Positions 2,936 through 49,356 of a stretch of DNA of 64,000 nucleotides are shown piece after piece. Origin of the DNA: Escherichia phage finno; the sequence record MN850619.1. One strand, given 5' to 3'. Below the pieces are notes generated by a model. It searched no databases and had not been told where the DNA came from. It saw only the letters and a list, made by a program, of their open reading frames with translations. The translations under genes and the position numbers were made by a program. Position 1 is the stretch's first letter, and every line of letters starts with the position of its first letter.

Positions 2936-3011
2936 TGGCAGCGGCATAAGGATTTGAACCTTAATAGGACAGCTTCAGAGACTGCTGCATTGCCAGTTAT
3001 GCTATACCGCT
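2936..3011 (-). tRNA. tRNA-Gln (anticodon CUG), tentative
   Basis: T-arm TAAGG-ATTTGAA-CCTTA, D-stem 4/4 pairs, U8/A14/G18G19/A21 present, anticodon loop CUCUGAA. Confidence 0.7.
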
Positions 3012-3912: not shown

Positions 3913-4007
3913 GTGAAAGAGGTCTGAAGTTGTGCCGCTAACTCAACTCCGTGGAATTTGTTACGGTCTTCAGTTGACACCAGCGGTCTTTCACTTGACC
4001 TCTGAAT

Positions 4008-25393: not shown

Positions 25394-26173
25394 TCAGCTT
25401 ATGAATTTGAACTTTTTAGAATACATCAAGTAGTGAACTTCATCCTGATTTGTTGTGTAGATGTACGCTGCTGGGTAGTTATCAAAGAACACCCCTTCAT
25501 ATCTTCCAAACGGGTCAACTGGGAACATTTCACTGTTACACATACCCATCTCACTAACCAGAGGGTAACTAACCTCAACCTTGCCATCAACAAGCTGATA
25601 GAGGGTAACTTGATTAGTCTTCCCGTCACTTAGCACGACACCATCATAGAATTGTGGTGCTGAGGTAGCATACTTAGGGGTAACTACACTTGCCATTGCT
25701 TCATCATAGACGTATAGGTACACATCAACGTTATACATAACACTATTAATGAGGCTTTTCACAGCTTGTGCATCTAAACCACCTATACCTGCCCCAATCA
25801 TGGGTAAACCAATCTTACGAATGTTGTGCAGCCAGCAAAATTTACGGAGTTTTTCTAGTGACTCCACTAAGTATCGGTATGATGCACACTTCCCAACATC
25901 CAACTGTGTATATAGGTTAAAAATGTAACCATACTCCGTTCGAGCATGTGACACCTCACCAACCATCTGGTATCCGATATCATGAGCACTGTAGCCAAAC
26001 TTTTTATGGAATTTCCGGTCAGCTTCTTCAGCTTTTGGGAAAATCTTAGCAATTTTTTGAGCGATTCCAGCACCCATGAGGTTACGACAGTTGCAACCAT
26101 GAGCAATTAACTCAATATCTGTGTTTTTGAAGGCAGCCAGTAAGTTACCTTTCACAACTTTTACAATACCCAT
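25394..26173 (-). CDS. Macro-domain protein (ADP-ribose binding/processing), with C-terminal extension of unknown function
   Basis: 259 aa; ELIAHGCNCRNLMGAGIAQKIAKIFP and IGLPMIGAGIGGLD resemble the two macro-domain glycine-rich motifs. Confidence 0.5.
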   Translation of the reverse strand: MGIVKVVKGNLLAAFKNTDIELIAHGCNCRNLMGAGIAQKIAKIFPKAEEADRKFHKKFGYSAHDIGYQMVGEVSHARTEYGYIFNLYTQLDVGKCASYRYLVESLEKLRKFCWLHNIRKIGLPMIGAGIGGLDAQAVKSLINSVMYNVDVYLYVYDEAMASVVTPKYATSAPQFYDGVVLSDGKTNQVTLYQLVDGKVEVSYPLVSEMGMCNSEMFPVDPFGRYEGVFFDNYPAAYIYTTNQDEVHYLMYSKKFKFIS

Positions 26174-33611: not shown

Positions 33612-33640
33612 AGAAATTAAAAAGGCTCCCGTAGGAGCCT
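33612..33640 (-). terminator. Rho-independent terminator after the NAMPT-like gene
   Basis: Minus-sense AGGCTCCTACGGGAGCCT followed by TTTTAATTTCT. Confidence 0.6.
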
Positions 33641-33654
33641 CTTATCATATACTT

Positions 33655-35436
33655 TTAAAGCTGCTTGTCAATATTATTTCGAATATCACCAAGAGTTGTG
33701 TAACCGAACTGCTCAGAGTCACTAAAGACTAAACGTAAAGCACAAGCTGGGTGGTCAAGTACATCTGCAAAACTCTGGAATCCATAGCCATCTACAGCTT
33801 TCAGCTTATCACCATCCCACATAGGTGCTACACCACCAAAGGCAGATTTCTTAACACCACTATCTGTTTTAGGGTCTTTTGCAAGCATAATCTCTTTACC
33901 ACCAATGCTTGCAAGAGTTGCTTTGACAGCAAATGCAAAGGTGTCACGAGTCATGTACTGGTAAGTGTAAGAACCTACGCCAAACACCACGTTAGAGCTT
34001 GCAAAACCCATTTCATACAGACGCTTCAGGATTTCGTTTGCACGTTCCAGTGTGATAGAGTCACCATAGATAAGGCCGATATGCTCGTCCAGTACCTTAA
34101 ATCCTTTAGAGTTAATAGTTCCCCCAAAGATGTTGTACAGTGTCTTAATAGCTCCATCAATCTCAGCTACAGGACGTGTTACAACGTTTGCAGAGCCAAC
34201 CATATAAGCATTTTTCAACATCACTGTATCAGCAACTTCAAAGTCTTCTCGGTCAACAACCATTTCGTAGCCTTCTGACAGTAGCCATCCAGCAATACCA
34301 TAGCTGATGTTTTCAAGCTTCATGTTCAGAACAGCATTCAGCATTGTGTCACTGGCTTCCAGCTTGCTTAGGTGCTCGTAATAAGCCTTTTTAGCACACT
34401 CTAAGTGGATTGCTTTATAACCTGTGACAATATGTACAGGGTCTCCAGAGTCAGGACGAATTACCAGTTTACCGTCACGTTCCATAATTTCTTTACGAAG
34501 TGCTGGTAAGATTTCTGACACAGTTCTCCAGAAGTTATAAGTGTCTGAAACAATACTTGCAATACCAGTTGGGTAAGTTTCTGTTAAGAAACGACGGAAG
34601 GTTTGTAACTCACCTTTAAATCGTCTTTCTTCTTCAACCAACTCGTTACCACCTTCCCAAGCAATGTTTGCACACATTACAGAGTGTTCAGTGGCTGGTA
34701 CAGAGCTTCCAATATCAGAGATTGGATAGGTCTGCCCATAGATACGTTTAGCCGTGTATACAGCAGGGAAGCTATCAGTCCCTTTAAAGCTGGTTAAGTG
34801 TCCTACAGCGTTGAATGCGTCATCAGTAAAGCCGGACATACCACGCATAGCAAAGTCATGGCACTGATAAGGTAAATGCAAGTCGTTGTCGCAAGTGAGG
34901 TCAGCCCACTTCTTACAGATACGTTTGTAGTGCAATGCAATAGTTGCAATGGTGCAAGCCTTCCAAATCTCAGCAGAGAAAGCGTCTTCTAGATAACCTG
35001 CTACCCAATGGAAACCTGAAACAGTGTTCTGGAAGACAATCATTGGAACACGCATAGGAACAACTGTACCTTCTTCTACAGCGTATACTTCAACTGGTAG
35101 ATAGCCTAAATCGTGAAGTGCTTCCCAATGCTCTCGACCGATAGCATCTTTACCCAGAACACCATTCATGACTTCTAAGATTTCGTCAACTGCTCCTTTT
35201 TTATCACGTTCAAAGAAAGTGGCGTTCCAGTGGTCTATCAAGTAATCTTTAACAAAACGTTGAATACCAAAAGCTACTACACCATCAATTGCTAAGGGGC
35301 TGTTAAACCATTTGTCGCTACGTGGTGTCAGGTTGAACATCAAGTAATCTGTTGCACTGGGGTATTGGTAAACATGGCCAGATTTGTAAGCGTCCGCGTT
35401 TAAACCTGCTGGTACTGCATAAAGTGATTTAGTCAT
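33655..35436 (-). CDS. nadV: Nicotinamide phosphoribosyltransferase family protein (NadV/NAMPT-like; possibly the Namat-type nicotinamide ADPR transferase of a NAD+ reconstitution pathway)
   Basis: 593 aa; NADAYKSGH, VPATEHSVM, VSDTYN, IRPDSGDP, GDSI and FGVGSYTYQYMTRDT match conserved NAMPT motifs; ~100-aa insertion relative to canonical NAMPT. Confidence 0.8.
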   Translation of the reverse strand: MTKSLYAVPAGLNADAYKSGHVYQYPSATDYLMFNLTPRSDKWFNSPLAIDGVVAFGIQRFVKDYLIDHWNATFFERDKKGAVDEILEVMNGVLGKDAIGREHWEALHDLGYLPVEVYAVEEGTVVPMRVPMIVFQNTVSGFHWVAGYLEDAFSAEIWKACTIATIALHYKRICKKWADLTCDNDLHLPYQCHDFAMRGMSGFTDDAFNAVGHLTSFKGTDSFPAVYTAKRIYGQTYPISDIGSSVPATEHSVMCANIAWEGGNELVEEERRFKGELQTFRRFLTETYPTGIASIVSDTYNFWRTVSEILPALRKEIMERDGKLVIRPDSGDPVHIVTGYKAIHLECAKKAYYEHLSKLEASDTMLNAVLNMKLENISYGIAGWLLSEGYEMVVDREDFEVADTVMLKNAYMVGSANVVTRPVAEIDGAIKTLYNIFGGTINSKGFKVLDEHIGLIYGDSITLERANEILKRLYEMGFASSNVVFGVGSYTYQYMTRDTFAFAVKATLASIGGKEIMLAKDPKTDSGVKKSAFGGVAPMWDGDKLKAVDGYGFQSFADVLDHPACALRLVFSDSEQFGYTTLGDIRNNIDKQL

Positions 35437-35481
35437 CTTTTAATCTCTCTCAAAATGGGGCTTTCAAGCCCCTATAAAGTT

Positions 35482-36363
35482 TCAATCAATGGTTGCTACA
35501 GTAACTTGGGCGTAATGTGTTAAGCCACGGTCTTTAGCTTCACCTAAAGAGTTTGTAGTGTAGATATGGTCAATACCATTGTCAAGTAAGTTTTCAACAC
35601 CTTTAGAGAAAATACCATGAGTTACATAGAGTTCCACACGTTTTGCACCTGCTTCACGGAGATGTTTCGCTGCTTCTATGAAGGTTCGACCACCATCACA
35701 GATATCATCCAGAATCATGACGGTTTTATCTGTCAAATCAGCATCGTCAAGGATTCGCATACCAGTGATTTCTCCCGTCTTAAGATTGCGCACTTTAGAC
35801 ATTGTGATGTATGGTTTATCCACCTCTTTAGCAGTCTCTGCAATCTTCTTAGCAGCACCTGCATCTGGGGCTACTAAGTAATCAATTAGAGGGTCATTTG
35901 CATAGTGAACTGCAATTTCCTTTTGAGGAATACTCTGGAAGCAGTTAAACAGGTTATCTGGTACATAGCTGTGAGGGTCAACTGCACAGACTGCATCAAA
36001 ACCCATTGCATTAACCTGTTGTGCAAACACTTTCAAAGCTGCTGCATCACCTTTAAACATGTGACGGTCGTAACGTGCATTTGGCAAATAGTAAAAGATA
36101 GCAGTCTTCATAGCAAACTTATGGGGTACTAAATCGTCAATTGCTTCTTTAGCAAGTGCCACAGCAAATAATGTGTCTTTGTCATAACCCTTTACAATCA
36201 TAATCACGTTGTTGATGGATGATGCTGCATAAGCAGTAAAATCAACAAGCTCTTGTGAAAAGTGTCCACCAATCTCACCAGAAGGGAACTGGATGATGTT
36301 AAACTCTTCTTCATGAGACCCTTTTGTCGGTGAATGAATTATAACACGAATAGATGTTTTCAT
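35482..36363 (-). CDS. prs: Ribose-phosphate pyrophosphokinase (PRPP synthetase) family protein (Prs-like; possibly the Adps-type ADPR-pyrophosphate synthetase)
   Basis: Start trimmed to the ATG at 36361-36363 (track start is TTG); FPSGE, YLPNARYDR, VDPHS and ILDDICDGGRT match Prs motifs. Confidence 0.75.
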   Translation of the reverse strand: MKTSIRVIIHSPTKGSHEEEFNIIQFPSGEIGGHFSQELVDFTAYAASSINNVIMIVKGYDKDTLFAVALAKEAIDDLVPHKFAMKTAIFYYLPNARYDRHMFKGDAAALKVFAQQVNAMGFDAVCAVDPHSYVPDNLFNCFQSIPQKEIAVHYANDPLIDYLVAPDAGAAKKIAETAKEVDKPYITMSKVRNLKTGEITGMRILDDADLTDKTVMILDDICDGGRTFIEAAKHLREAGAKRVELYVTHGIFSKGVENLLDNGIDHIYTTNSLGEAKDRGLTHYAQVTVATID

Positions 36364-36377
36364 AGTTTTCTCTCTCT

Positions 36378-36785
36378 TTATTCCCAAATAACCTTTCTAC
36401 GCTTTATCTGGATAATGTTCTTTTTACAATATTCGATAGCTTCATCTATTGACCCAAAACTTTCCTTCTCCACAAAGAAGCGAACTTCACCATCTTGTAT
36501 CTTTTGTTCTTCGGCTGTTGGCTCTTCAAGTATTTTACTTGATACTTCTCTGTTAATCTGCATTACATACTCGAAAGAGTTCTTCTTGTATCCAACTATT
36601 TTAATGTAACCCCTCTGGCGAAGACGATTGAACCGAGTTGACTTGTTTGTCTTGGATACATCTGGAAATTCCTTGTCATGGATACTACGTATCTGTGAGC
36701 AAGTAAATGTTTTATCATAGCCAAACTCATTATACAGGACTTTTAACAGTTCAATCATAACATCACTCCCAAATAACTTTTGCAT
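36378..36785 (-). CDS. Hypothetical protein, paralog family A (copy 2)
   Basis: Start trimmed to MQKLFGS by homology with 37249..37671; shared C-terminus EAIEYCKKNIIQIKRRKVIWE. Confidence 0.55.
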   Translation of the reverse strand: MQKLFGSDVMIELLKVLYNEFGYDKTFTCSQIRSIHDKEFPDVSKTNKSTRFNRLRQRGYIKIVGYKKNSFEYVMQINREVSSKILEEPTAEEQKIQDGEVRFFVEKESFGSIDEAIEYCKKNIIQIKRRKVIWE

Positions 36786-37227
36786 GTTTAACTTTAATAA
36801 GATGCTCTTTGCAGTGCTCAATAGCTTCATCTAGTGTTTTAAACATAACATCCGCGATAAAGTATCTTACGTCAGGTTGTACATCAACATCTTTAACCTC
36901 AGATAAGTTTGATTTTTGTGAACTCCCCAACTCTTCACGCGTGTTATCTAGCATCCTTGACAGTTGTATGTGCTTCTCCATAAAGGCTCGATTTAATTGA
37001 TTAATACTTAGTCTACCTTTGCTTTTTACCTGCCCTACAGTCAGTAGTACACCAGACTGTCTTAACATTGTTAGATACCCACGGGTATTACTGATTGACT
37101 GGCCTCGTATAAAAAGGCTATTCTCTCTTAATGCGTCAATTGCTTCGTTAGAGTCAAAAGTGTTTTCTGTCCCGAAGGTTTTGTATAAAATCTCTATTAC
37201 GTGCTTCTGTAAATTGCAAAAAATCAT
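36763..37227 (-). CDS. Hypothetical protein, paralog family B (copy 2)
   Basis: 154 aa; MIFCNLQKHVIEILYKTFGTENTFDSNEAI...EHCKEHLIKVKHAKVIWE; overlaps the downstream A-type start by 23 nt. Confidence 0.55.
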   Translation of the reverse strand: MIFCNLQKHVIEILYKTFGTENTFDSNEAIDALRENSLFIRGQSISNTRGYLTMLRQSGVLLTVGQVKSKGRLSINQLNRAFMEKHIQLSRMLDNTREELGSSQKSNLSEVKDVDVQPDVRYFIADVMFKTLDEAIEHCKEHLIKVKHAKVIWE

Positions 37228-37248
37228 AGTGTATTCCTAATCAAATGT

Positions 37249-37671
37249 TTAAACTTCTTCCCAAACAATACGCTTTCTTTTTGTTTGGATAACCGTCCTC
37301 TTACAATGCTCAACTGCTGCCTCCATACTGGTAAAGTGTATGTCACCTATGAAGTACCCTACTTCACCTACACTGACCTCTTCATCCTTTTGTTGATAGT
37401 CATTACAATTTAAAAGCACATTTTTAGCTTTGCTTTCATTGATTCTCATAAGATACTCATTATTAAATCCTGTCGCTCCAACAACACTAATGTACCCACT
37501 TTTACGTAATCTGTGAGACCAATTAGCTTTATCCCTGATTGAAGCATGTGGTAGATATTTATTAAAAACCTTAGTTAGTTGTGAGCCAGAAAATGTTTTA
37601 TCATAGCCAAAATTTATATACAGAACCTTCAGAAGCTCAAACATGTTATTACTCCCAAATAATTTTTGCAC
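37249..37671 (-). CDS. Hypothetical protein, paralog family A (copy 1)
   Basis: 140 aa; MQKLFGSNNMFELLKVLYINFGYDKTF...VEHCKRTVIQTKRKRIVWE. Confidence 0.55.
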   Translation of the reverse strand: MQKLFGSNNMFELLKVLYINFGYDKTFSGSQLTKVFNKYLPHASIRDKANWSHRLRKSGYISVVGATGFNNEYLMRINESKAKNVLLNCNDYQQKDEEVSVGEVGYFIGDIHFTSMEAAVEHCKRTVIQTKRKRIVWEEV

Positions 37672-38104
37672 GTTTTACTTTGATAATATACTTTTTGCAG
37701 TGTTCAACAGCATCTTGGAGTGTATCAAACATCAACTCACCAATAAAGAATTTTATGTCTGGAGACACACCTACACCACCACTTAAGTCTTTTTGCTGCT
37801 CTTCACGTTGGTTTCGTGGCTCTTTAAGTAAATAGTCTAGCTGAATGTGCTTCTCAATAAAACCTCTATTTAATTGGTTGATGAGCATCCTCCCTTGTTG
37901 CTTAATCTGTCCTACCACGATGAGCACACCCCACTTTCTCATCTGAGTCAAGTAGTACCTGATGTTTGCTATTGGCTGTTTTTTGATGTAATCACTTCCT
38001 TCTTGTAGGGCTTCAATAGCTTCATTTGAGTCAAATGTGTTATCTGTCCCAAACTTATTGTATAGAATCTCAATAATTCTTTTTTGGAAGCTGCAAAAAA
38101 TCAT
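37649..38104 (-). CDS. Hypothetical protein, paralog family B (copy 1)
   Basis: 151 aa; MIFCSFQKRIIEILYNKFGTDNTFDSNEAI...EHCKKYIIKVKRAKIIWE; overlaps the downstream A-type start by 23 nt. Confidence 0.55.
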   Translation of the reverse strand: MIFCSFQKRIIEILYNKFGTDNTFDSNEAIEALQEGSDYIKKQPIANIRYYLTQMRKWGVLIVVGQIKQQGRMLINQLNRGFIEKHIQLDYLLKEPRNQREEQQKDLSGGVGVSPDIKFFIGELMFDTLQDAVEHCKKYIIKVKRAKIIWE

Positions 38105-38113
38105 AATTTTCTC

Positions 38114-38392
38114 TCAATCAAAAGTTACGTTTGTTACTGCCATTGCAGATTTGCATTTTACAGGGTCTACAACGTGATAAAGTACACTACAGTTACCTGT
38201 GCTGTCTGGTACAGGCTTTACCCATTGCTGCTTTATAGTTGGCTCCCCTAAGTCTTTGTAAGAGCCATCTGTAAAGTTGTTTACCATCTCAAGTGCAATT
38301 GGTTCTGGAACATGACCACGTATCATGTACATTTCACAACCATTACCACCTTCACTGACTAATGGTAAAATCTCCCACTTCTCTTTAGCCAT
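38114..38392 (-). CDS. Hypothetical protein
   Basis: 92 aa ORF. Confidence 0.5.
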   Translation of the reverse strand: MAKEKWEILPLVSEGGNGCEMYMIRGHVPEPIALEMVNNFTDGSYKDLGEPTIKQQWVKPVPDSTGNCSVLYHVVDPVKCKSAMAVTNVTFD

Positions 38393-38900
38393 TGTAAGTC
38401 GCCCTATAAACTGTCTCGAACTTCAACAGGAGAGATATTGCCAAATCTGTATAGTTGTTGTCAAGCACATCTGGCATATTATTTTTGATATATTTCTCTT
38501 GCTCTTCATAGGTCATCTTAGGAGTGCTTAGAAGGTTATCTCCTTGCTTCTGGTTATCAAGTTTAGTCTGGATAAACCAGTTTGCACAGTGATGCTCACC
38601 ACCCTTTGTAACAGGTTTGTGGTGGCCTAATGTAAATGTTTGCTTACCTGTATACCTGCAAAGATTGTTCAGTGTTGCAATAGTGTTCTTCACAACACAC
38701 CATTCATATAGGTTATCTATTGTGTAGTGTGGGTAATAACGGACAAGTGCTCTTTCACGGAAGTTATCACGATTCCAAAGAACCATGTGATTCGAGTTAG
38801 AAGGGTCGTATTGGTGGGAGTCAATGAACTCTTGACGCTCCTCAAAGCTGAGTCTTAGAACTGACATTGCAGCCGAACGTTTCAGGTTTGACAGATACAT
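38385..38900 (-). CDS. HNH endonuclease (homing-endonuclease-like)
   Basis: 171 aa; LGHHKPVTKGGEHHCANW is a clear HNH motif. Confidence 0.6.
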   Translation of the reverse strand: MYLSNLKRSAAMSVLRLSFEERQEFIDSHQYDPSNSNHMVLWNRDNFRERALVRYYPHYTIDNLYEWCVVKNTIATLNNLCRYTGKQTFTLGHHKPVTKGGEHHCANWFIQTKLDNQKQGDNLLSTPKMTYEEQEKYIKNNMPDVLDNNYTDLAISLLLKFETVYRATYNG

Positions 38901-38951
38901 ATCATCTCCAAAATAAAAAGGGAACCTTTACAGTTCCCTTATAGTATCTGT

Positions 38952-40177: not shown

Positions 40178-40573
40178 TCATTCAAACACTACCTGACAGG
40201 GAACCTGTTTAGTAATAAACTCTTCACAGTGCTCTTTAATGAAGTTTTGTAATGGCACACAGTCTTGTGCACAAGTCATTAGCATAATGTACTCTGGATT
40301 CATAATATTTTCAAGACTGTAGAAGACAACATTGTCAGATAATTCATGACCGTCTTCTTCAGACCAAGTTCCAGTGACTACAGCTAATTTGTCAAGCAAT
40401 TCATTAGGCAACGGTACACCATCTTCTACGGAATCACTTAGAACGTTGTCGCTGATGTACAATGTGAAGGTCGTATGGAATGTTGAGTATTTTACGTGAT
40501 TCTTTTCGCAAGAGCCACACTCTGAGGCGTAATCTTTAAGCCACTCTAACTGTTTTTGATTTAACTTAATCAT
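40178..40573 (-). CDS. Hypothetical acidic Cys-containing protein
   Basis: 131 aa ORF. Confidence 0.5.
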   Translation of the reverse strand: MIKLNQKQLEWLKDYASECGSCEKNHVKYSTFHTTFTLYISDNVLSDSVEDGVPLPNELLDKLAVVTGTWSEEDGHELSDNVVFYSLENIMNPEYIMLMTCAQDCVPLQNFIKEHCEEFITKQVPCQVVFE

Positions 40574-40770
40574 AATTTCACCTTAGTTGGTAATGCACTG
40601 AATGCTATAGCTAACCCTAAAAATGGTTTGAAGCATGACCATAAATCCATCTGACCATTATATGATAAATTCCATTGTGGGTCTGAAAAACCCCATACCA
40701 TAGCACTAACCCCAAAGAAGAAGATTATAGTGCGGAGTATGTATATCATCGTTTTTGATATCTTAAACAT
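40570..40770 (-). CDS. Hypothetical small membrane protein
   Basis: 66 aa; two hydrophobic segments. Confidence 0.45.
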   Translation of the reverse strand: MFKISKTMIYILRTIIFFFGVSAMVWGFSDPQWNLSYNGQMDLWSCFKPFLGLAIAFSALPTKVKL

Positions 40771-40882
40771 TTTAACTTATCTCTCAATTCACAATAAGAG
40801 AGTCCTAAAAAGAACCCTAGTAAGACAGAACCGATGAACAACCCAATAATACTATCTGCCATATCTAACATCCAAAGAAAAA

Positions 40883-40920
40883 GGTGATGTAAGCCTATCA
40901 AGACCCACATCACCTTGTCA
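40883..40920 (-). terminator. Rho-independent terminator after nrdD
   Basis: Minus-sense AAGGTGATGT-loop-ACATCACCTT followed by TTTTCTTTGG. Confidence 0.55.
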
Positions 40921-48858: not shown

Positions 48859-49356
48859 TCAAGCACAATTTGCTTTCATTACCTTATGGATTCTTTTTTC
48901 AGCATCTTCATAAGTTTCTTTAGTAATAAACTTAATTGCTGCAATATTGGCATTGTAGAAGAGTCTGAGCTTCGAGTCAATCCTTTTTGTCATTACATCG
49001 AACTTATGTTGAAGGTTTGCTTCACCATAAACTAGACCACCTTTTGTGTAGTAGGTTTGGATAATGTAAAAGTCAAAAGACTCTTTTCCAAAACTCTCAA
49101 TATCTTTTTTAATATACTCAGAAGATGTTTCGTAAGTCATCCAATCACTCTCCTTAGTGACTACCTTCTTCCGAGTCTTCCCAGCAACTTTTCTTTTTGT
49201 CACACTGTTAAGTTGTTTCTTTCCGATATAATATTGTCCGGTCTTCTTACAGTGTACTAAATAGACAAAGCCAAAATGTTTAGTGGGGTCAACTTCCCCA
49301 CATAAAGATACCCAATGACCATAGGTGGGGCAATTGCCAAATCCTTTAATCTTCAT
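48859..49356 (-). CDS. GIY-YIG endonuclease (homing-endonuclease-like)
   Basis: 165 aa; FGFVYLVHCKKTGQYYIGKK matches the GIY-(10-11)-YIG motif. Confidence 0.55.
   Translation of the reverse strand: MKIKGFGNCPTYGHWVSLCGEVDPTKHFGFVYLVHCKKTGQYYIGKKQLNSVTKRKVAGKTRKKVVTKESDWMTYETSSEYIKKDIESFGKESFDFYIIQTYYTKGGLVYGEANLQHKFDVMTKRIDSKLRLFYNANIAAIKFITKETYEDAEKRIHKVMKANCA

Follow-up and report, generated by a model that had tools for sequence, protein, structure and literature searches.

A tandem array of four paralogous genes for predicted winged-helix proteins at an accessory site beside the NAD+ reconstitution operon of a Felixounavirus

Four small consecutive open reading frames occupy positions 36378-38104 on the minus strand of Escherichia phage finno (MN850619.1; the 64,000-nucleotide stretch that was analysed is referred to here as the window), and they raise the question of how a phage came to hold such an array and what the encoded proteins may do. 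In transcription order the genes are B2, A2, B1 and A1, and an original prediction had described them as a tandemly duplicated two-gene module, B-A-B-A, made up of two paralog families with a conserved C-terminus. B2 (37649-38104) encodes 151 residues comprising a winged helix (residues 5-86), a disordered linker, a beta-beta-alpha module and a tail ending in KRAKIIWE, and B1 (36763-37227, 154 residues) is 58% identical to it. A2 (37249-37644) and A1 (36378-36758) encode 131 and 126 residues when read from the ATG codons at 37644 and 36758, with alternative starts for A2 at a GTG at 37671 and for A1 at ATG codons at 36785 and 36830, and are 43% identical to each other (BLASTP E 6e-41). The two types are themselves related, B2 and A2 sharing 30% identity over 142 residues (BLASTP E 1e-18), so that pairwise alignment returns significant paralogy among all four proteins, even for A against B. 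All four also match the profile phrog_29478 (E 5e-63, 8.8e-68, 1.8e-14 and 6.1e-16), and the matches span profile positions 1-150 or 5-150 of 150, that is, its full length. Judged by these alignments, the alternating paralogy goes far beyond chance, in agreement with the original prediction, and A and B are subtypes of one family, homologous from end to end; the conserved C-terminal motif is real, recurring in 14 sequences, but the division into two families does not hold. Because the four copies are present in 10 independent phage genomes, the array is not an artefact of assembly; a B2 copy at 99% identity was also found on an 88.9-kb metagenome contig.

A repeat search revealed a 196-nt DNA repeat of 76% identity lying across the junction between B end and A start in both units (36694-36889 and 37580-37775), with a period of 877-886 nt, and a 126-nt repeat covering both B starts. 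We read these repeats as the trace of a duplication of the B-A unit, a history that had been predicted and that is backed by the longer repeat, by the identical design of the two junctions and by the occurrence of a lone B2-A2 pair at the same site in two distant phages. The duplication is ancient, because synonymous sites between the paralogs are saturated (dS > 2), and dN/dS values of 0.05-0.24 in every orthologue pair, across all lineages, indicate that all four genes encode maintained proteins. Old paralogs under purifying selection do not fit the earlier description of the locus as an evolving system.

That description had also included a 23-nt overlap of each A start with the preceding B end. 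The overlap arises only when the furthest upstream A start is chosen (the GTG at 37671, which would give a 140-residue A2, or the ATG at 36785 in A1), and no Shine-Dalgarno sequence precedes either codon; both are forced by the reading frame of B, since they sit inside its conserved K-(H/R)-A-K codons. The ATG codons at 37644 and 36758, by comparison, each lie 4 nt past the B stop and are each preceded, 7 nt upstream, by a GGGAG made of the last Trp-Glu codons of B (minus strand, 37652-37656 for A2 at the end of B2, and 36766-36770 for A1 inside the end of B1). The junctions read TGGGAG-TAA-TAAC-ATG and TGGGAG-TGA-TGTT-ATG, sharing the design TGGGAG-TRA-NNNN-ATG, and GGGAG stands 7 nt 5' of the A start in four independent B-A junctions, being kept in the distant relatives L005 and L006. 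Gene calls for A2 in public databases are of the 131-residue form. Choice of the wrong start codon probably accounts for the 23-nt overlap, whereas tight translational coupling of A to B through the 4-nt spacer, not through an overlap, is plausible: because the ribosome-binding site of A consists of the last codons of B, A would be translated in step with the B that precedes it.

The window belongs to a Felixounavirus and is 98.8% identical to Escherichia phage vB_EcoM_ESCO50 (ESCO50) across the cassette region. Synteny comparison of 245 phage records matching the flanks confirmed the accessory status that had been proposed for the genes, as only 15 (~6%) carry the family, 10 of them with four genes and five with two, giving a copy number of 0, 2 or 4. 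In about 230 of the records the site is empty, and the stop codon of the conserved upstream neighbour, a 92-aa gene (g92; 38114-38392, minus strand), falls 11 nt from the start of adps (35482-36363, minus strand), the immediate downstream neighbour. The single site is thus found in four states, namely empty, B2-A2, B1-B3 (B3 being a third, B-like lineage) and B2-A2-B1-A1. The B2-A2 state occurs in two metagenomic relatives, with flanking proteins 68-84%, B2 84-86% and A2 69-76% identical, and the B1-B3 state, with a spacer of 28-33 nt between the two genes, in Pr103Blw, Mooglevirus Mordin and others. Pr103Blw matches the window at 91-98% identity in the flanks but at only 79% in B1, which argues that alleles have been exchanged laterally.

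Both ends of the cassette carry a direct repeat, as identified by repeat search and comparison with empty sites. In the window it measures 15 nt, the left copy (TCATAATTTTCTCTC, 38101-38115) holding the ribosome-binding site and ATG of B2 and the right copy (TCATAGTTTTCTCTC, 36360-36374) those of adps. In Citrobacter phage Mordin (L009) the repeat is about 37 nt long, flanks the two-gene cassette at about 2965-3005 and 3930-3970 and contains the last codons of the 92-aa gene together with a ribosome-binding site and ATG; it looks like an insertion scar and a substrate for precise deletion. Such repeats at the cassette ends offer an ordinary recombinational route for gain and loss, and the array may be described as a dispensable cassette that would enter and leave an intergenic hot spot by this route. 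Two loci show further irregularities. Salmonella phage fBSPA4 (L003, 4110-5300) is a four-copy phage without the 92-aa gene, and its upstream 85-aa and DUF7390 genes are strongly diverged alleles (55-64% amino acid identity), indicating mosaicism around the cassette. In a metagenomic locus (L011, 620-1055) a B1 of the Pr103Blw type is broken by frameshifts or stops and followed by an intact B3 start; the lesions reflect either decay into a pseudogene or faulty assembly.

Overall, members of the family are very rare. Among 1.84 billion representatives, an exhaustive HMM search returned only four that truly belong to it, in addition to a 1424-aa protein (P0016) and two spurious repeat proteins; P0016 contains at least six tandem modules resembling the winged-helix head of the family (E 1.3e-6, three matched stretches). 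Scans of IMG/VR gave no loci, a JGI metagenome scan gave two, both of already known types, and a further word-indexed search with the full alignment gave no new lineages. Separate HMMs for the N-domain and the C-terminal module (C-module), run against all open reading frames of the window and the loci, detected no extra copies and no lone modules.

Sporadic occurrence at a precise intergenic site between conserved genes is a trait of homing endonucleases, and homing endonuclease genes, those of the HNH-AP2 type among them, are present in this region in relatives. The cassette could accordingly be a selfish mobile element, a new or degenerate free-standing homing endonuclease or a DNA-binding remnant spreading into the g92/adps site, and its C-module does loosely resemble the final strand plus helix of the AP2 domain, as found at the ends (YF.G.F.T.EEA) of neighbouring HNH-AP2 proteins, although at an E-value of about 1-2 in a tiny database this likeness is not significant and none of the four proteins matches Pfam AP2. 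We consider a selfish element very unlikely. The proteins are only 126-154 residues long and have no Pfam nuclease match and no catalytic motif of the HNH, GIY-YIG, LAGLIDADG or PD-(D/E)xK type, and a His/Asn/Asp metal-site set is missing from their invariant alignment positions (L, Y, F, G, T, R, V, N, A, E, C, I, K and W), all of which speaks against a homing endonuclease identity. The four diverged copies are moreover under purifying selection, their divergence is on a par with that of the flanks in distant phages, pointing to long vertical residence together with loss, and gain and loss are accounted for by ordinary recombination at the flanking direct repeats. Homing endonucleases had been predicted to adjoin the cassette, but none lies directly next to it in the window, where the nearest GIY-YIG gene is found at 48859-49356. 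This 165-aa gene is labelled "NAD synthetase" in the ESCO50 annotation and encodes a protein with a SegE-like GIY-YIG domain (Pfam E 4.9e-28); the label in the public record is probably wrong.

The prediction that the cassette lies beside an NAD+ module proved correct, with adps, a PRPS-like gene (Pfam Pribosyltran/Pribosyl_synth), directly downstream and followed by the Nampt-like gene namat (33655-35436, minus strand; Pfam NAPRTase E 3e-35). Together the two genes form NARP1, an NAD+ reconstitution operon that counters NAD+-depleting defence in the Felixounavirus Bas63 (bioRxiv 10.1101/2024.02.11.579819). Terminator-like hairpins on the minus strand lie upstream of g171, g92, the cassette and NARP1 (38918-38940), where phage Mordin has an annotated terminator at the equivalent place, and after namat (33620-33643). 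These hairpins would mark the start and end of one leftward transcription unit and make co-transcription of g171, g92, B2, A2, B1, A1, adps and namat likely.

Several neighbouring features deserve mention in their own right. Just 45 nt (35437-35481) separate namat from adps in the window, and at this place ESCO50 and Mushroom carry a gene for a 163-aa HNH-AP2 homing endonuclease that is absent from the window, constituting a second presence/absence polymorphism within the NARP1 operon. The conserved 171-aa upstream gene (38385-38900) contains an HNH-like string (GHHKPVTKGGEHHCANWF...DNQKQGD) with no Pfam HNH match and is 77-100% conserved in all relatives examined. A 259-aa Macro-domain protein (25394-26173; Pfam E 1.2e-6) is encoded in the same leftward block, placing an ADP-ribose-related function near NARP1. 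Between nrdG and nrdD, a gap of only about 64 nt in ESCO50, the window holds three small open reading frames at 40178-40913, of 131, 66 and 55 aa, of which the 66-aa and 55-aa frames look membrane-like; the 131-aa frame has no Pfam match, and L005, L006 and Mordin carry a 130-132-aa gene beside nrdG.

The position of the cassette, immediately upstream of and probably co-transcribed with an operon of proven anti-defence function in Bas63, raises the possibility of a role in counter-defence or host takeover, in which the constant C-module would bind or block one host factor, such as an immune protein or RNA polymerase, and the variable heads would act as targeting or decoy surfaces, adding to the anti-defence effect of NARP1. 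Consistent with such a role are the precedent of RyDEP, a variable gene product of the NARP1 locus that is an immune-evasion factor (PMC13232231), the patchy presence of the cassette among near-identical phages, the presence of alleles more diverged than their flanks, as in the B1 of Pr103Blw, and the rarity of the family, with four representatives in 1.84 billion proteins. However, this evidence, like that for any functional link to the NAD+ module, is a matter of position only. NARP1 is present without the cassette in more than 200 phages. Conversely, locus L007 (2561-4056) carries B1-B3 followed by 124-aa and 57-aa open reading frames and a rIIA-like gene, with adps and namat both absent, and the distant single-copy homologue P0015, on another Ounavirinae-like contig, is found some 5.8 kb downstream of a Namat-like gene of the NAPRTase family, not adjacent to it. 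An obligate component of NARP1 was rejected on these same grounds. In addition, the low dN/dS values bear no sign of an arms race, and no similarity to known anti-defence proteins was found. On balance we regard a counter-defence role as rather unlikely.

What the proteins might do instead is suggested by their predicted fold. AlphaFold models, which rest on alignments of only 14-16 sequences, give the heads of both subtypes the topology H1-S1-H2-H3-S2-wing-S3, with H2-H3 as the helix-turn-helix, at a pLDDT of about 90. The winged-helix N-terminal half that had been proposed is borne out by these monomer models. Its predicted basic character holds for the four window proteins (pI 9.3-9.7) but not for B3 and P0015, whose N-domains have a pI of 6.1-6.7. 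The best low-rmsd structural matches are DNA-binding regulators, namely SarX (2.4 A over 85 residues), F93, TubR and PadR, and a BFVD fold search returned only the family itself and generic helix-turn-helix proteins. By sequence, no curated winged-helix-turn-helix family (MarR, PadR, ArsR, TubR and others) matched above noise in Pfam or NCBIfam, nor did any in a PDB sequence profile search. The recognition helix H3 is the most diverged element between paralogs, with 29-50% identity between paralogs of the same type and 14-29% between A and B, yet it is almost identical among B2 orthologues though their flanking genes are only 68-84% identical, and in B3 it is 86% identical to the B2 version. 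R56 (B2 numbering), at the C-terminal end of this helix, is invariant in 14 close members and replaced only in P0015, and N79, at the wing end, is invariant in the same 14 and nearly so when P0015 is added.

Conservation is highest at the other end of the protein. Between A and B the C-module, comprising the C-terminal 35 residues, is 43-51% identical as against 22-27% for the N-terminal 93 residues, and across all subtypes including P0015 the values are 43-54% for the C-module and 15-27% for the N-domain. Residues F120, F126, A132, E134, C136, I141, K144, W150 and E151 are invariant across 14 sequences. The module is modelled as two short strands and a helix at a pLDDT of about 65, preceded by a disordered linker and followed by a tail at a pLDDT below 50.

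Our preferred reading, which we hold tentatively, is that the four genes encode accessory winged-helix proteins that bind DNA, their recognition helices having diverged and their common C-module serving oligomerisation or docking. Each protein would join a MarR/SarA/F93-like head that reads DNA, a flexible linker, the family-specific beta-beta-alpha C-module and a basic tail of the form ...KRxK(I/V)(I/V)WE. Because H3 is nearly fixed within an orthologous lineage and strongly different between paralogs, each copy would recognise a different site; a target DNA motif was not identified. The C-module might self- or cross-associate into dimers, or dock onto one common partner, but because it is modelled at low confidence this role is a guess. 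The proteins may thereby regulate phage or host DNA transactions.

A winged helix may also serve protein-protein contacts, as in kleisin, NLR and cullin winged-helix domains, and the proteins could then be small adaptors or inhibitors in phage replication or nucleotide metabolism. Compatible with this are the surrounding genes, which concern nucleotide metabolism and replication, and the neutral heads of B3 and P0015, but the closest structural matches are DNA-binding regulators, R56 and N79 are conserved and residues of this kind are common in DNA readers, and all four window copies have basic heads; we therefore judge a protein-contact function unlikely, and prefer DNA binding. An A-B heteromer, as originally suggested, is possible, since copies at the g92/adps site always come in pairs; B1, however, is partnered with A1 or with the B-like B3, in the latter case across the 28-33-nt spacer, and P0015 stands alone. 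A more elaborate proposal, which we find doubtful, is a modular effector set in which interchangeable heads would aim the constant C-module, with its KRxKIIWE tail, at different nucleic acids or proteins, the two copies of a pair would form heterodimers, and the whole would be a new counter-defence or host-takeover addition to the NARP1 operon.

Searches for other identities lend themselves to brief report. Models from Pfam, NCBIfam and PADLOC returned nothing above noise, the matches to XopL_C, RBFA, DapB_N and CV_2116 (E 0.005-0.1) being far below cut-offs. An SH2 domain was rejected, as only a 40-residue betaD-alphaB stretch of the NCK1/NCK2 SH2 domains matches in a PDB profile search (E 0.05-0.08) and a disordered linker precedes it; the aligned stretch is the C-module motif YFIg..mF.TldEAvEHCKK (37649-37760 in B2, and its paralogs). 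The resemblances of this beta-beta-alpha motif to SH2 and AP2 are probably fortuitous. A toxin-antitoxin pair was rejected as well, because A and B are paralogous and not unrelated, and no toxin or antitoxin family was matched in Pfam, NCBIfam or PADLOC. A literature search found no paper describing the family.

The locus is a rare, cleanly delimited paralog array within a phage accessory hot spot. Well-delimited accessory gene families are common in phage genomes, and the significance of this one is modest unless it proves to act in anti-defence or regulation. Should the four proteins have four different DNA specificities, they would represent a compact natural case of one scaffold diversified by duplication within a lytic phage. 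Because their genes occur patchily next to an operon of proven anti-defence function, they are sensible candidates for host-range or counter-defence screens of Felix-O1-like phages, which serve to type Salmonella and E. coli and as biocontrol agents against both.

Among known systems, RyDEP of phage DyoEdafos is similar in being encoded by a gene that is present in one phage, missing in a close relative and located in or next to the adps-namat operon (PMC13232231). In contrast to RyDEP, which is an RyR-domain glycosidase, the proteins described here are predicted winged-helix proteins without enzyme-like features, and their cassette also occurs without NARP1. The regulators of the MarR/SarA/PadR type and the archaeal-virus proteins STIV F93 and SSV1 F-93 have no detectable sequence relationship to the family, which differs from them in its invariant C-terminal E-x-C-K...WE-COOH; MarR and PadR possess helical dimerisation arms, whereas the four proteins lack these and have instead a disordered linker and a unique beta-beta-alpha module. 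The family is already catalogued, without function, as PHROG 29478, where its two subtypes, tandem array and fold are not described. Large DNA viruses contain multi-copy families of DNA-binding genes, and T4-like phages contain hyperplastic regions of small open reading frames. The present array resembles these in consisting of tandem, diverged, small and putatively DNA-binding paralogs whose copy number varies between close strains, and in an exchange that apparently takes place at short conserved intergenic sequences; the proteins are unrelated in sequence, and the analogy is an evolutionary one.
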